The notes: generated from the letters alone by a model not told the origin. DNA of 64,000 bases from Myxococcales bacterium (GCA_045863395.1 BTVJ01000015.1:71663-135662), one strand, 5' to 3'. Counted from the stretch's first letter, positions 56,536-63,799 are shown. Made by a program: numbers and translations.

Positions 56536-56769
56536 TCAACAAGACCCTGGCAACGGGACCTCGATCTCCTCAGACCGCCATGCCGCGTACGATAGCGCTG
56601 CCCGGATGTCTGCTTCATCCAGGTACGGGTAGGCAGCGAGGAACTCCTGAGTGGAGTGCCCGGCGGCGAGCAAACCGATGATCGTTCCTAGCGTGACGCG
56701 CATGCCACGAATGCACGGCTTCCCTCCCATCACCAGCGGATCGAACGTTATCCTCTCCAGCAGGTTCAC
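56536..56769 (-). CDS. DUF433 protein (VapB45-like antitoxin)
   Basis: GGAGGT RBS; RITFDP.VMGGKPCIRGMRV, YPYL..DIRAALSYA. Confidence 0.92.
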   Translation of the reverse strand: MNLLERITFDPLVMGGKPCIRGMRVTLGTIIGLLAAGHSTQEFLAAYPYLDEADIRAALSYAAWRSEEIEVPLPGSC

Positions 56770-56873
56770 GACGTCACCTCCAAGCTCCCACGCGCTTCGC
56801 GCTCCCGCCCTCAGGCTACCAGGAACTTCACGCATCTGGCGGGGCTGTCCCAGCGGCATTTACCGGCAGGTCG

Positions 56874-58382
56874 TCAGGGCGGGAGGTCCGAGGGGTCGTC
56901 GCAGTGGATGGTCGGGAGATAGGTGCTGGCCGCGAGGCGGAATCCGTGGACTGCGGCGCGGATGCAGAAGTGGCGGTCCTCTCCTACGATCTCCGCTGGC
57001 AGATTGTGGATGGGGTCGTAGGTGACTCCGGCGTCCGCGACCGCCCGTCGGATGAGGGTCACCGCGCCCAGACCGCCCACGGGCCGCACACCGGGACGCT
57101 CGATGAGGTCGGCGATGAAGTCTTCGCTCAGGTCGTACTGGCCCCGCTCCCAGACCTGGGGCCACTTGCCGGCCCGGACCTCTGAGAGGGCGCGCGCCAC
57201 GTCCCTGCGAAGCGGAGTCCCGTCGGGGATGCGGAGGATCGGTCCACCGGTCTGCAGGTCCCACCGCGCCCAGAAGACGGGGCTGACCACGTCCTCGCCC
57301 GTCGCGAGCAGGTGGCCGGGTGTCCGAGGGTCCATGAGGACATCCGAGTCCAGCGCGAGCAGCGCGTCGGCGCCGCTGGCCTGGAGTCGTCGCAGCATGT
57401 CGTTGCGCAGGCGGGTCATGCGGCGGAGCGGCCCCTCCGGGTCGTGCGGCGGCCCCCACCAGCGGTTTCCGCCTGCCGCAACCGGATCCGGGAGTGAGAC
57501 GGTCTCCACGCGGACGTTTCGGTGGCTACGGGAGGCCCACTCCCCGAGGAGCGCTGCCGTCTCGTCGGTGGAGTCGTTCACGAGGAGCTGGATCTCGACG
57601 CGGGCGGGGTCCATGTGCAGCGCGTCCAGAGAGGCGGTCAGATGGGGGACCATCCACGCGCGATTGCGGATGGGGATGCAGAGCAGGATGTCTGCGGGAG
57701 CGAGCGCGGATGCCAGGGGTCGTAGAGTGGGCGGGCTGAGGATGGTGTGCGCGTGCGCGAGATTCACGCCGGTGTTTCGGGCCAGGTAGTGCTCGGCCTT
57801 CTGCGCCCGCAGCTCCTGGCGACCGTAGGCGAGGTGGAGCACGGGCGGGTCAAGGGGCTCCGGGACGAGGTCTGCTGCGTACTCGGGCAGGCGCGATGCG
57901 TGGAAGGTGGGCCCGGCATCCGGGCGCGCCGCGAATGGAACATCGCGAAAGCGTACGAAGAACGTCAGCCAGGGAGACCACCAACCGTCGAGCCGCCAAT
58001 GCGAGTCGTCCCACAGCTCCAGGAGCTTGGCGTCGAGGCGCTCCACCGAGACGGGCAGACCACGTAGCCGAGATGCGGACAACGTGGCGCTCGGCACCTC
58101 GTCCGCGTCGAAGAGGGCCACCCAATCATCGTGCTTCGCCACCTCGCGAACCGCCTCCCAGAGCCGAGCGCGAGCGAGCGTCTCGTGGACGAGAAGCATG
58201 GGGGTGTCGCTTCGGTGGAGGACGACCCTCGGGCCGTGCCGGCGGAGCACGTCGGGGGACCCGTCGTCGCTCGCGTCATCGGGAACCACGAGCACGTCGA
58301 CCAGGGCGAGCATCGCCTGCGCCCATCGCTCCAGCCACCTGCTGCGCTCGTTCCTCAAGATGGTGGCCCCTATGATCTTCAT
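56874..58382 (-). CDS. Two-domain GT-A (family 2) glycosyltransferase
   Basis: Domain 1: RNE, DDASDD, FDADE, HLAYG. Domain 2: PIRNR, NDSTD, LDSD, VGGLGA.TLI, GEDRHFCIRA. Confidence 0.88.
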   Translation of the reverse strand: MKIIGATILRNERSRWLERWAQAMLALVDVLVVPDDASDDGSPDVLRRHGPRVVLHRSDTPMLLVHETLARARLWEAVREVAKHDDWVALFDADEVPSATLSASRLRGLPVSVERLDAKLLELWDDSHWRLDGWWSPWLTFFVRFRDVPFAARPDAGPTFHASRLPEYAADLVPEPLDPPVLHLAYGRQELRAQKAEHYLARNTGVNLAHAHTILSPPTLRPLASALAPADILLCIPIRNRAWMVPHLTASLDALHMDPARVEIQLLVNDSTDETAALLGEWASRSHRNVRVETVSLPDPVAAGGNRWWGPPHDPEGPLRRMTRLRNDMLRRLQASGADALLALDSDVLMDPRTPGHLLATGEDVVSPVFWARWDLQTGGPILRIPDGTPLRRDVARALSEVRAGKWPQVWERGQYDLSEDFIADLIERPGVRPVGGLGAVTLIRRAVADAGVTYDPIHNLPAEIVGEDRHFCIRAAVHGFRLAASTYLPTIHCDDPSDLPP

Positions 58383-58470
58383 GGCTCCTCCGCTGCCAGG
58401 TGAGCTGCCGCCAGGGCCAACCGCATCAGGACATTGCGGCCGCGCCTGGGGTCTTGCGCAAGGCTCTCAC

Positions 58471-58502
58471 AAATCAGGCAAAAAAAAAAATTGCTATTGA
58501 CA
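58471..58502 (+). promoter_or_regulatory. A11 homopolymer within promoter-like sequence between the divergent GT genes
   Basis: CAGGC-A11-TTGCT followed by TTGACA (58497-58502). Confidence 0.45.
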
Positions 58503-58710
58503 ACGAAATGCGCCCGGGTGTAGGGGGTGAGGACATCGACACGATGGACCGCAGGGGCGGTTCACGGCGCAAGGCGACGGACGCGGGCTGGCAGTGGCTG
58601 TACAGGGTGTCGATGACACCCGGCGTCGGGAGTGTGCTCGAAGGGCGCCACTGACTCGCCGCGTCCGAGACTGAGTCGAGAGCGGGGTGCGATACCAGCG
58701 GGGAGAGACC

Positions 58711-59721
58711 ATGCTGTTGAGCGTGTGCATGATCGCGCGGGACGAGTCGCGCTGCATCGGAGACGCGATTCGAAGTGCCAGGTCCCTGGCCGACGAGGTC
58801 ATCGTCGTCGACACCGGCTCACGGGACACGACGCCCCACGTCGCGAGCCAGCTCGGCGCCCGCGTACTCCACCAGCCGTGGCAGGACGACTTCTCCCTCC
58901 ACCGGAACCATGCAATCGACCAGGCCCTCGGGCGCTGGGTGCTCATCCTGGACGCGGACGAGGTCATCGAGCCCGCCGACTTCGGCGAGACGCGGTCGCG
59001 ACTGGCCGGCGACGGGCTCCCGGACATCCTCATGGTGAAGCACTGGTCCACGTATCCCGGCGGCGACTCGGTCCTCGAGTATCTGGCCCGCATCGTCCGG
59101 CGCGACAGCGGCATCCGATACGTCCACCCCATCCACGAGCAGTTGAAGGTCCGCGGGGAGGAGGCCCTGCTCAGCAACCTCGTCCTGCGACACAGCGGGT
59201 ATACGGGAGCGGAGCGCCTGCGCCAGAAGCACGAGCGCAACCTGCGCATCGCGCAGATGATGCCCGACGACGAGCCCCACGCGCACCACTGCCGCATGCG
59301 GAGCCTCGCAGCGCTGGGTCGTTGGGACGAGGCGGCCCGCGCCGCGGACGCCCTGCTGGCCCTGCACGGCGTCGCGGACCCCGTGAGGTCCGATGCCCAC
59401 GTGCTGGCGGCGGCCGCGCGGCTGGAGGCGGCCCGCCGCGGCTAGCCGAACGGAGACTTCCGCGAGCACCTCGGTGCGGCCCGTGCCCTCGACCCCCTGG
59501 CGCCGGATGTCCCCTATCTGGAGATGTTCGCGTCGGCGCTCGACTACCTGAAGGCGCTCGACCGAGCCAACACACCGGGCACGGCGGAGTTCCTGCGCAT
59601 CGGGCACTTCTAGCGCGCGGGGTCGAGCGTCGAGGAGCTCGTGCGGACCATGACGGGAGAGACCCTCGACGCCCTCTCGCGGCGCGGGCAGGTGCGCCGG
59701 AGCAAGAGCGACGAGAAGTGA
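58711..59721 (+). pseudogene. GT2 glycosyltransferase with TPR-like tail; catalytic ORF 58711..59445 intact, tail broken by two in-frame TAGs
   Basis: LSVCMIARDE, VVDTGS.D.T, WQDDFS..RN, LDADE, IHE, H.GY; frame continues after TAG 59443 and TAG 59611 to TGA 59719. Confidence 0.7.
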
Positions 59722-59806
59722 CCGCGCGGAGAATCCGACACCGCCTCTGCCGGAGACCCCAGCGCCAAGTGTTGAGTGACCCGCAGATACAGGAGGAGCA
59801 GACCCC

Positions 59807-60163
59807 ATGGCAGCAGTGATTGAGCTGGCCCCCTGGACGACGTTGAGCGGCTCGGGCAGCGTGACGTTGACGCAGGCGCCGGGAGAGTGGGTGGACGTCT
59901 CCGAGCACGCCGACGGGATGTTCCTGCTGGACGTGAAGGACATCACCGTCTCCGTTCGCATCTACGTCGACACGAGCCCGAGCGACGACGACGGCTATTT
60001 CACGCCGCTGTTCGACTACGTGGCGACCACCGGCGCGACCCTGCGGATCAGCCGCTTCGCCGACGCGGCCACGCCGCTGATGCGCTACGTCCGGTGGAGG
60101 CTCGCCTCGGGCACCAACTGGGCCGTGACCTTCAGGATCTCCGCCGTCCTGAAGACCCTCTAG
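59807..60163 (+). CDS. Small beta-rich protein, paralog type A1
   Basis: AGGAGG RBS; ELAPW..LSG..Q..EW.D..TPLMRYVRW..W..FRI. Confidence 0.88.
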   Translation: MAAVIELAPWTTLSGSGSVTLTQAPGEWVDVSEHADGMFLLDVKDITVSVRIYVDTSPSDDDGYFTPLFDYVATTGATLRISRFADAATPLMRYVRWRLASGTNWAVTFRISAVLKTL

Positions 60164-60178
60164 CCCACGGAGGACACC

Positions 60179-60589
60179 ATGGCCTGCACATGTGACAGCC
60201 GGGGCGGATTCCACCTGAGCGCGCGCGACACGCCGGGCGAGCTGCTCCCCTGGTCGCGACTCGGGGGCAGCACCGCAGCGACGACCATCACCCAGCCCGC
60301 AGAGCAGTGGCTCGACGCCGGCATGTTCCGGCACGCCCTGCTCTGCCTCGACGTCCGGGCGTACTCCGGCGACGTCCACCTCTTCATCCAGACGGCGCAG
60401 GTCGACGAGGAGGACGCCTTCGTGACCATCGTCGACCACCAGCCGGCGGCGACCGGCAGGACCTGGTTCAAGGTAGAGGCCACGGCCACCACGCCGCTGC
60501 TCCGCTTCGTCCGCTGGAAGGTGGGTGCGGGCAGCGGGCCCTGGAGCCTCTTTGCCCGCGTCGCAGCCACCTTCAAGTCGGCTGCCTGA
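60179..60589 (+). CDS. Small beta-rich protein, paralog type B1 (N-terminal CxC)
   Basis: GGAGG RBS; MACTCD..PGELLPW..TPLLRFVRWK. Confidence 0.88.
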   Translation: MACTCDSRGGFHLSARDTPGELLPWSRLGGSTAATTITQPAEQWLDAGMFRHALLCLDVRAYSGDVHLFIQTAQVDEEDAFVTIVDHQPAATGRTWFKVEATATTPLLRFVRWKVGAGSGPWSLFARVAATFKSAA

Positions 60590-60635
60590 ACGTGTACACT
60601 GAGCACCGGCCCCCGGCGCCGGAGGAGAGACGACC

Positions 60636-60995
60636 ATGAGAGGTGTCATCGAGCTCGCCCCCTGGACCAACCTGAGCGGCGGCGCCAGCCAGGACTTCAT
60701 CCAGCCGCAGCGGGAGTGGCCCGACATCGGCTCCTTCGCTGACGGCACCATCTTCGTCGACATCAAGGACCGGGGCGGCGCCCCGACGCTCCACCTCCAG
60801 ACTGCCATCGTGGAGGAGGACGCCTACTTCGTGGACTTCACCGGCGGCATCGCCACCACCGGCACCACGCTGCTCGTGAGCCGCTTCGCCACGGCGACGA
60901 CGCCCATGATGCGTTACCTGCGGTGGAAGGTGGAGGCCGGCGCCTCCGCATGGAATCTGACGTTCCGCATTCTGGCGGTGCTGAAGCACGGCTGA
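60636..60995 (+). CDS. Small beta-rich protein, paralog type A2
   Basis: GGAGG RBS; VIELAPW..TPMMRYLRWK..TFRI. Confidence 0.88.
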   Translation: MRGVIELAPWTNLSGGASQDFIQPQREWPDIGSFADGTIFVDIKDRGGAPTLHLQTAIVEEDAYFVDFTGGIATTGTTLLVSRFATATTPMMRYLRWKVEAGASAWNLTFRILAVLKHG

Positions 60996-61007
60996 GGAGG
61001 TGCCCCC

Positions 61008-61424
61008 ATGCCATGCGACTGCCCGAGCAGTGGAGCCCCGAGGGTCCGGGAAGACGCTCGCCCCGGCGAGCTGTGCCCCTGGACCCGCCTGCAAGGCTCG
61101 ACAGGGACCACCGTCGTCACCCAGCCGTCGGCCGAGTGGGTCGACGCCAAGGACTTCATCGGCGCCCTCGTCGGCATCGACGTCCGCGACTACAGCAGCG
61201 ACGTCCGCATCTACGTCCAGACCTCGAATACCCTGGACGACGCCTCCTTCGTCGACTTGATCAACCACCGCCCCACGGTGGCAGGCAGGAAGTACTTCAA
61301 GCTCCTCCCGACAGACACGACGCCGCTCCTCCGCTACGTCCGCTGGAAGGCCGGCAACGCCACCGCGGCCTGGAGGGCCCAGTTCCGCATCGTCGCCAAC
61401 TTCAAGAGCCGTGATGGGCGGTAG
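61008..61424 (+). CDS. Small beta-rich protein, paralog type B2 (N-terminal CxC)
   Basis: GAGGAGG RBS; MPCDCP..PGELCPW..TPLLRYVRWK. Confidence 0.88.
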   Translation: MPCDCPSSGAPRVREDARPGELCPWTRLQGSTGTTVVTQPSAEWVDAKDFIGALVGIDVRDYSSDVRIYVQTSNTLDDASFVDLINHRPTVAGRKYFKLLPTDTTPLLRYVRWKAGNATAAWRAQFRIVANFKSRDGR

Positions 61425-61698
61425 GGAGCTGGGGATTGGTCATCGTTTCGGCCACTCCACACGAACACTGCTCAGGCCGCGCCCTGAAGAAGGGACAGTC
61501 GACCGTTGGCGGGATTGTGCGCTCATCCCCCAGCAGCTCGCGGCCTTGCATCGCAGCTCGCCGAGACTTTGAGCATAGCCCATGCAGGCAGCAGTGGAAC
61601 GAGACATCGAGTGCGCGGAGAGTCCGACGCATCTACAGAGCCGGTCACGCCGCGATTACGTCAATTCGCGCCTTCTGCCCAAGCTGCTTGAGTGAGTC

Positions 61699-62109
61699 AT
61701 GACGCGGCACCCGACGACTATCGAGCCCTTGAGTGCCGACGGCCACGGGCTCGGCAAACCTCCAGAGAACGAGCCTCGGGAAGATTCGCCGAATTTGGTG
61801 GACGGGTCCACGCAGGGAGTCCAGCTTCATAGACAACCCCTGGGCATTGACGTTGCCGACGTTCAAGACAGCGCGCAAGATCCACCGTACCCAACGCCTA
61901 CGTTCGCCGATCTCCTTGGGACCGGTGCCTTGGCAATGGTGCTGAGACAGGCACGGCAGGGACAGTTTGATCACATGCTCACTCCATCCGTGTTGGAGCG
62001 TCTGGAACGATCTGGAGCCGCCAAGCATGGCCAAGTACGTTGGGAGTTCGCCAACTCGGACGATGCCCTGGCGATGCTGGCATGGCTCACCGATAGATTC
62101 GAGGCCTGA
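61699..62109 (+). CDS. Hypothetical protein (lower GC)
   Basis: 136-aa ORF ending 2 nt before the next ATG; no recognised motif. Confidence 0.4.
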   Translation: MTRHPTTIEPLSADGHGLGKPPENEPREDSPNLVDGSTQGVQLHRQPLGIDVADVQDSAQDPPYPTPTFADLLGTGALAMVLRQARQGQFDHMLTPSVLERLERSGAAKHGQVRWEFANSDDALAMLAWLTDRFEA

Positions 62110-62111
62110 CC

Positions 62112-63116
62112 ATGAGTCCATGTGAGAAGTTCGTGCTGTCCGGTGGGTTCACCAAGGCTTCGAATCTTGGTCTGTTCCTGGATTGCATACTGTTCTCCAT
62201 GGGCAAAGGAGCCACATCCAGCGGACCAGGAGCCCTGATTGGCGCGGTGTTCTTCTTCATCATCGTACACCATGCTTACAAGCAGGCCCCTGCGGTTTGG
62301 ATGTGGGACGATAACAAGGCGCCGCAGGTGCCGGGGAAGTTTCTGGCGACACAAGTGCTTGCGGATCCCAAGCCCTATCTCGCTTGGGCAAAGAAGCGCG
62401 GAGTTTTGCATACTTGGATAGACCCGATCAGCGCAATAGTCAGTCCGACACCCAAAGCAGTTGCAGACCTCTCGAACTTTTTGACTCTTTCCAGGAAGCA
62501 GGGCCTGACGACGCAGTTTCTGTTTGCCTCTACAGGCAGTTCGGACCCAGCGGGCACAGGTTCCAACGAACTCGACGCCATTTTCGGCTTGCTCAAGCAG
62601 ATCGACAAGAAATTTTGGCCATCGGCCGTTCAGACAAACATTGAGGGCTTGGGTGGTGGCGTTGATGCGACCAAACAATACAATGCCCACAAGGCGTTCA
62701 AGGCAAAGGTCGACTCGTTCAACTTGAAGAACGGCACCCAGCTTGGACTTGCGGCGTCCGTAGGCTTCTGGTGGCTCAAGTTCGAAGCTGGCGGCGACCC
62801 ACCGAAGGTCGGCGGAAAGGACTACGGTCTTGCGTTGTTGGAACTCGGCTTCGACGTCACAGTCCAAGTCTATCGCAAACCGGAGTGGACCATCAAGCCC
62901 GCGGAGAAATGGTCTGATGTTGCAGGGGATTTCGGCCGCCAGGCGTGGATTGGTCTGTTGGTGGGGCCCAAGGAGACCGGGTCGTACGACTATTCGGACA
63001 AAATCGAGGCGCTCGGCGGAGCATTCGCGGACGTAGTCGACGCGTGTATCAACAAGCCTGGTTTTGCAGGAGTGGCCGCCCACGACACATATTACTGGCA
63101 AAAGGCCGCCCCATGA
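62112..63116 (+). CDS. Putative TIM-barrel glycoside-hydrolase-like protein (lower GC)
   Basis: AVWMW, KKRGV, TNIEG, VGFWW, VQVYR, WIGL, FAGVAAHDTYYW pattern; start uncertain. Confidence 0.55.
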   Translation: MSPCEKFVLSGGFTKASNLGLFLDCILFSMGKGATSSGPGALIGAVFFFIIVHHAYKQAPAVWMWDDNKAPQVPGKFLATQVLADPKPYLAWAKKRGVLHTWIDPISAIVSPTPKAVADLSNFLTLSRKQGLTTQFLFASTGSSDPAGTGSNELDAIFGLLKQIDKKFWPSAVQTNIEGLGGGVDATKQYNAHKAFKAKVDSFNLKNGTQLGLAASVGFWWLKFEAGGDPPKVGGKDYGLALLELGFDVTVQVYRKPEWTIKPAEKWSDVAGDFGRQAWIGLLVGPKETGSYDYSDKIEALGGAFADVVDACINKPGFAGVAAHDTYYWQKAAP

Positions 63117-63151: not shown

Positions 63152-63799
63152 ATGCTGAAGGATTACCGGGAGCAACCGTGTGGCGCGAGACTTGGTGCCT
63201 CGCTTCTTGTGCTCATTCTCACTGCTTGCTCGGCCAGTCAAACGTCCCCCGCCGCGGCTGGAGCAAGCTTGGATATTGTGGACGCGGACTCTCCAGACAA
63301 TGAAGACATCGCCTCGTCGGACGCGGCCGAAGTCATCTCGGACGTAGGCTCCATCGACGACAGCCCCGTTGCACCTTGCGGCGCCGATGAGTGCATCGGA
63401 TCGTGCCGCGGGTGCCCCGCCGGGGAGGCGTGCTCCCCAACCGGCCGGTGCGATCCGCAATGTGCGCCCTTCTGTAGCGACCGAGCGTGTGGCTCCGACG
63501 GTTGTGGCGGCGAGTGTGGCAAGTGTGGGTCTGGAGAGACGTGCACCCCGTCCGGCCGGTGCGAACCGGAGTGCACTCCGTCCTGCAATGGCGAGACTTG
63601 TCGGTCCGACGGTTGCGGCGGCGAGTGTCAATGCCCAGCCGGCTGGGCCTGCAATGCAAATGGAGTTTGTGCGCTGTGGTGCTGGCCGACATGCAATGAC
63701 AAGGAGTGCGGATACAACGGATGCGGGATTGAGTGCGGATTGTGCGACGAGGGGGAGGTCTGCACCGAAGCTGGGATGTGCGAGCCGGAGGTGCCGTGA
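63152..63799 (+). CDS. Cys-rich repeat lipoprotein (C.P.C....CG.DGCGG.C repeats), possibly truncated
   Basis: GGAGG RBS; lipobox LTAC; three full repeats; the repeat continues past the TGA. Confidence 0.8.
   Translation: MLKDYREQPCGARLGASLLVLILTACSASQTSPAAAGASLDIVDADSPDNEDIASSDAAEVISDVGSIDDSPVAPCGADECIGSCRGCPAGEACSPTGRCDPQCAPFCSDRACGSDGCGGECGKCGSGETCTPSGRCEPECTPSCNGETCRSDGCGGECQCPAGWACNANGVCALWCWPTCNDKECGYNGCGIECGLCDEGEVCTEAGMCEPEVP

Follow-up and report, generated by a model that had tools for sequence, protein, structure and literature searches.

Jelly-roll paralog arrays linked to glycosyltransferase, variable cargo and lipoprotein genes in a Myxococcales bacterium and related genomes

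Gene content of the locus and its glycosyltransferases

Within the 64,000-nt stretch of Myxococcales DNA that was analyzed (the window), four small co-oriented paralogs lie next to two divergent glycosyltransferase (GT) genes and are followed by a variable "cargo" gene and a predicted lipoprotein gene. The features are as follows, with the basis of each assignment in parentheses.

56874..58382, minus strand: two-domain GT2 glycosyltransferase, 502 aa, a local accessory gene (Pfam PF13704/PF00535/Anp1)
58383..58710, no strand: divergent intergenic region of 328 nt that includes an A-tract and the hexamer TTGACA (sequence)
58711..59721, plus strand: array-linked GT2, 336 codons, whose C-terminus is helical (TPR-like); its nonsense codons at 59443 and 59611 are specific to the strain (frame, Pfam, alignment, other DNA runs)
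59807..60163, plus strand: jelly-roll subunit A1, 118 aa (paralogy, tree)
60179..60589, plus strand: jelly-roll subunit B1, 136 aa, N-terminal extension of ~15 aa with CxC (paralogy, tree)
60636..60995, plus strand: jelly-roll subunit A2, 119 aa, the modelled member (AlphaFold2, fold searches)
61008..61424, plus strand: jelly-roll subunit B2, 138 aa, N-terminal extension with CxC (paralogy)
61436..61702, plus strand: candidate 88-aa ORF, doubtful, with a TTG start, GGAG upstream and a stop overlapping the next ATG (sequence)
61699..62109, plus strand: signal-less 136-aa ORF that accompanies the 334-aa ORF (homologs in L119, L120/L123)
62112..63116, plus strand: variable 334-aa cargo ORF (homologs in four other class genomes)
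63152..63799, plus strand: predicted lipoprotein, 215 aa, with lipobox Cys26, Cys-rich repeats and an RBS (lipobox rule)

The initial annotation had placed the limits of the system at 56874 and 61424, but the cassette continues on the same strand with the 136-aa ORF, the 334-aa ORF and the lipoprotein gene. The GC content of the genes after 61424 is ~0.60 versus 0.69, and the right end of the window is also the end of the contig. Homologs of the 88-aa ORF are absent from its own genome and from the locus set. A promoter scan of the divergent intergenic region returned zero sites, with no full sigma-70 site. A DUF433 antitoxin-like gene (56536-56859; Pfam) lies at the left edge of the island. 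One base at 61003, in the spacer between the RBS and the start of B2, is absent in all four other DNA runs, and a conspecific contig (run X7) matches the window up to 61455, followed by 954 nt of different sequence.

The minus-strand product contains two GT2 stretches recognized by Pfam, and this two-domain enzyme was found in just 2 of 107 genomes of the class, its own and G001 (ortholog, 53%), in each case beside an A-B array. The plus-strand GT frame, opening at ATG 58711, crosses in-frame TAG codons at 59443 and 59611; the alignment column of the second is occupied by Trp in seven of the eight other GTs aligned there, and related GTs are 330-360 aa long. DNA contigs from two other studies (runs X2 and X7) carry GAG and TGG instead, with intact alleles, indicating that the TAGs of the window are nonsense alleles of its own strain or assembly; recoding was rejected on the same grounds. 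Thus, the divergent GT2 pair of the initial annotation is in place, but, judging from the reading frame, its GT2-TPR member is broken in its own assembly, and the TPR matches in Pfam are weak (E 0.07-0.27). Its match to TIGR04195 reaches E 8e-14, with a score of 51 against a cutoff of 350. SunS-type GT2-TPR enzymes glycosylate proteins; they and the flagellin-modifying GT2-TPR enzymes likewise have a GT-A core, an LSxCMIxxNE-type start and a helical C-terminus, but the array-linked GT constitutes a subfamily of its own, apart from both.

A profile of the C-terminal half of this subfamily, run over the 107 class genomes, identified 17 places in 10 genomes, corresponding to 10 of the 21 array-positive genomes and 0 of the 86 others. 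Among the nine places outside the profile training, five adjoin a full array (window included), one adjoins array remnants and three adjoin neither, one of the three extending to a contig end. These sequence searches support a tie between the GT2-TPR subfamily and the arrays. The GT is optional to the cassette, being located within 1.5 kb of the array in 14 of 51 class loci (8 of 26 where both flanks were assembled), in 1 of 9 other loci, and in 0 of 19 Polyangiaceae-like loci (f19 and Polyangiaceae-titled records). The initial annotation had cast the GTs as partners of the paralogs, had proposed scoring their co-occurrence, and had counted homologs without GT neighbors against the claim. A tie to the arrays is supported for the GT2-TPR subfamily, all 10 GT genomes being array-positive; the two-domain GT2 is rare, and the many arrays with no adjoining GT in part represent the outcome counted against it.

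An intact 334-aa GT2-TPR paralog is present in the same genome on contig C149, between two degenerate family remnants. It lies in a second, decayed cassette (G000:C149:123-5640; L105) with the order trypsin-like ORF, lipoprotein, internally deleted jelly-roll remnant, intact GT2-TPR, degenerate remnant, and lipoprotein.

The jelly-roll paralogs and their structural relatives

The four paralogs (118, 136, 119 and 138 aa) conform to their original description as a co-oriented A-B-A-B series with strong RBSs and neither signal peptide nor transmembrane helix: GGAG(G) precedes each start (59807, 60179, 60636 and 61008), and no hydrophobic N-terminus or transmembrane segment was found in any of the four, with a hydrophobic N-terminus occurring in 1 of 274 family proteins. 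Pairwise identity is 47% for A1/A2, 46% for B1/B2 and 33-40% between A and B types (all E<=1e-19), and the B types form a separate clade (support 99 in a quick tree). The abundance of Thr and Ser claimed for them is raised but not extreme, at 15-20% versus a mean of 10.5% over 690 same-size genes of the same genome (top 2-10%). CxC with an extension of similar length is found in six of nine B-clade sequences, core Cys positions vary in the family, and A1 and A2 contain no Cys.

The AlphaFold2 model of A2 (pLDDT 92, pTM 0.82) is a single jelly roll, and its best fold match is Ena2A, a subunit of endospore-appendage fibers, tied with phage cement proteins and XepA/YomS; Ena1B and Ena3A are also among the fold matches listed. 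None of the four paralogs matches DUF3992 in Pfam at E<=1, no library family matched, and the family was not found in the open literature searched. The fold search suggested in the initial annotation thus returned a structural-type jelly roll with no characterized sequence family matched, and the model supports the view of the family as undescribed and of structural-type fold.

The best match evokes an Ena-like surface fiber or coat, in which the subunits would assemble by beta-sheet augmentation, the CxC arms of the B types would cross-link turns, the GT would glycosylate the fiber, and the downstream protein would be a tip adhesin or an unrelated passenger. The linkage of GTs to the arrays is in line with such a fiber, as is the parallel between the CxC extension and the Ena connector: in the accessible part of the source (10.1101/2020.08.21.260141), Ena fibers are built from both A and B jelly-roll subunits, with an N-terminal connector of 15 residues that carries Cys and provides Cys-Cys cross-links. 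A single jelly-roll subunit is common to Ena1/Ena2/Ena3 (DUF3992; PDB 7a02, 9i0y, 8pdz) and the present family, but identity is 11%, with no DUF3992 or sequence similarity. Furthermore, whereas Ena combines a CC connector with a conserved acceptor Cys in the core, here CxC is confined to one clade and the acceptor Cys is not conserved, the A types of the window lacking any. Also unlike Ena, the family resides in a Gram-negative, non-endospore-forming host and is linked to GT, cargo and lipoprotein genes. No link to sporulation was found, and nothing connects the locus to myxospores, for which a coat had been proposed. We consider the fiber unlikely.

The other structural relatives are viral. 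Phage cement or decoration proteins (BPP-1 Bbp16, 3j4u; KHP40, 7dou; Carin1; Pam1) and DUF6385-like clusters have near folds and are phage-borne, and in the nearest ESM Atlas clusters of the jelly roll (TM 0.89-0.91), viruses account for 61-89% of the members that have a record. Searches also linked the LamG tail of fused members to a family of phage virion proteins (E 1.6e-16) and one divergent member to part of a family of major tail proteins (E 1e-5). Together with broken copies (in C24, in C149, and with a TAG in G001) and transposases or integrases close to some arrays, these affinities are what would be expected if the arrays were left over from phage genes for capsid cement or tail accessory proteins and had become trapped in variable islands, without a shared function for the host. 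However, no capsid, portal, terminase or tail gene was recognized in 274 neighboring or fused ORFs (Pfam; most neighbors without a family), nor was a holin/amidase lysis cassette in the same set, and no relative was found by sequence in IMG/VR or GenBank phages, which distinguishes the arrays from phage cement and from the prophage tail modules that the initial annotation had listed as speaking against its proposal. Moreover, just 1 of 94 family domains has an internal stop, and the conservation of subunit types and gene order across arrays, with a dedicated GT across families, implies selection; that the arrays are mere relics appears highly improbable. XepA (PBSX) and YomS (SPbeta; PDB 6i56, 6i5o), prophage pentamers according to the accessible part of PMC6834076, are homo-oligomers without cargo from prophage lysis cassettes, and their two-domain arrangement is unlike our two-domain model (rmsd 23.8). 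No DJR-MCP was among the best 50 matches listed for that model, and no packaging ATPase was recognized.

Arrays, cargo genes and lipoproteins across genomes

Each cassette encodes two to nine distinct jelly-roll subunits, and up to eight arrays with differing downstream genes occur in one genome (G034), which fits a polymorphic system better than one coat. In 9 of 19 Polyangiaceae-like loci, compared with 0 of 51 class loci, a member is fused to a LamG-like lectin domain. Such a member would suit the tip of a fiber; it also bears on the proposal that the subunits are cytoplasmic adaptors or carbohydrate-binding modules, which would chaperone cargo to a secretion system already present in the cell, or bind what the GT makes, with no exported particle. 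The lectin fusions and the CxC arms suggest extracellular action instead, and no vgrG/PAAR-type gene was recognized among the neighbors scanned, so that such adaptors seem decidedly unlikely. Overall, the gene system is real, recurrent and apparently undescribed.

Three incomplete copies were encountered. One is a family gene cut off at a contig end (G000:C68:38775-38889), another a pseudogene remnant in a mobile-looking region (G000:C24:55515-55694), and the third an A-type paralog of G001 with a TAG at an invariant Trp and an adjoining IS66 fragment (L026:1537-1896), at a locus that may be decaying.

The first co-oriented ORFs behind the arrays, 58 in number, fall into 53 clusters (automatic picks, some wrong). 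Most have no Pfam family; those that could be assigned include S8 proteases (L043, L054 and, weakly, L028), beta-helix proteins (L032, L037, L107), and GH113-like (L030), beta-lactamase-like (L072), JAB-like (L079) and glycine-zipper (L046) proteins. Many are Cys-rich with a Pro-rich start, and one array of G001 is followed by two cargos that have 16 nt upstream and the first ~12 residues in common and then diverge toward their C-termini. A variable putative effector after a conserved upstream part, as in polymorphic toxin systems, is therefore present here. The cargos of L046, L048, L049, L050 and L067 (Polyangiaceae-like) have, by eye, repeated terminal P-N/D-P-x-D/G...G-P-type motifs, possibly a second targeting signal. 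Three different G034 cargos (L034, L039, L056) have in common a short D-I/V-I-G-S/T-A-H motif near the N-terminus.

The 334-aa cargo of the window has no match in Pfam, PHROG, NCBIfam or PDB sequences, and, by eye only, it may be TIM-barrel-like. Its homologs occur in 4 other of the 107 class genomes, with a small signal-less beta-rich ORF upstream in three and a lipobox gene directly after in two (by eye). The similarity of these small ORFs to the jelly-roll family is not significant; they are either evidence against the array-cargo link or more distant jelly rolls. A related pair of small beta-rich ORFs lies upstream of the 334-aa homologs at L126:8868-9293 and L127:782-1195, possibly a second scaffold family. 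For the 136-aa ORF, no Pfam family was found; homologs of it were identified in L119 (E 1e-20) and in L120/L123 (E 4e-6), each time 5' of the homolog of the 334-aa ORF.

We applied our own lipobox rule to the 56 arrays followed by 2.5 kb or more of sequence. In 20 of them, from 12 genomes or records and including 7 from G034, a non-lipobox gene and then a lipobox gene come next. The same pattern follows 87 of 1410 random genes of the own genome (6%) and 5 of 135 more remote genes within the loci themselves (4%); an earlier, stricter rule gave 9 of 68 arrays versus 58 of 1071. The window cassette follows this pattern except for an additional gene (136 aa, 334 aa, lipoprotein). The repeat type of its 215-aa predicted lipoprotein, a candidate immunity or anchor partner, is common to other genes of the same genome, and the lipoproteins matched no known immunity family.

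A putative effector cassette

Directly supported by the data are the fold, the conserved subunit types and order, the GT linkage, the cargo variability and the lipoprotein enrichment. With confidence evenly poised, we propose a modular effector cassette consisting of an optional dedicated GT2-TPR, two to nine jelly-roll subunits, a variable cargo and a lipoprotein. The variable downstream ORF and the lipoprotein point to a carrier or display role; the paralogs may well be structural subunits, as originally suggested, given the fold and the Ena-like best match, but a plain coat is less favored. Lectin fusions, cysteines and envelope-located partners further suggest action outside the cell, although subunits and cargo lack signal peptides.

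In the proposed cassette, the paralogs would be non-interchangeable subunits of a hetero-oligomer, a ring or short fiber, with the AB unit duplicated in the window. The oligomer would bind the signal-less cargo, probably via the Pro-rich N-terminal leader of the latter, and both would exit by a Sec-independent route, such as lysis, vesicles or a contact-dependent machine. The cargo may be an extracellular hydrolase or toxin for predation or competition, and the lipoprotein would shield the envelope of the producer or anchor the complex. Before export, the cytoplasmic GT2-TPR would attach O-glycans to the Ser/Thr-rich subunits or to the leader of the cargo; for the Polyangiaceae-like lineage, the lectin-fused subunit might supply target binding in place of this step. 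In the strain of the window, where the array GT appears inactivated, the intact C149 paralog possibly substitutes.

The closest functional analogy, with the same logic, is offered by the umbrella toxin particles of Streptomyces. In the accessible part of PMC11062931, the particles (UmbA/B/C/D) combine paralogous scaffold proteins, some lectin-fused, with a polymorphic toxin whose immunity gene comes immediately after it, and no GT is described there, in contrast to the GT-linked arrays. The folds are unrelated: a trypsin-like UmbA and an ALF-repeat UmbC ring stand against a jelly-roll scaffold in which no ALF repeats were recognized, and neither family was found among the cargos scanned. More tentatively, and at somewhat less than even confidence, Myxococcota might have converted a jelly roll resembling phage cement into a novel type of protein particle, self-assembling and hetero-oligomeric, that packages or displays interchangeable enzymes and toxins. 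Lectin-fused subunits would aim it in one lineage, a dedicated GT2-TPR would glycosylate it in another, and lipoproteins would provide the matching immunity. It would be the Gram-negative equivalent of umbrella toxins, with as many as eight variants in a genome. The novelty rests on the gene system, and the function is what we infer from it.

Most predatory myxobacterial lineages are uncultured. The cassette bears on how predatory myxobacteria deliver signal-less lytic proteins, serves as a marker for mining many uncharacterized effectors, and, as a recurring scaffold-cargo-lipoprotein unit of <5 kb, is small enough to be rebuilt in a laboratory host. If the subunits assemble, cells would have domesticated a virion accessory fold, and the product would be a protein particle that is both new and programmable; a fiber, in contrast, would amount to an Ena-like appendage outside Bacillota.

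Several loci have additional genes. Those for LuxR/GerE, sigma-54 activator or ECF sigma proteins lie immediately 5' of arrays L034, L080, L050, L055 and L058, hinting at dedicated regulation. The divergent loci L051, L052 and L053 (G293) comprise two jelly-roll genes, a third small beta-rich family and paired 264-aa paralogs, with a GT2-sulfotransferase fusion also in L052. Finally, a LanC/kinase gene (class III/IV lanthipeptide synthetase-like) is located between two arrays at L049:8809-11466.
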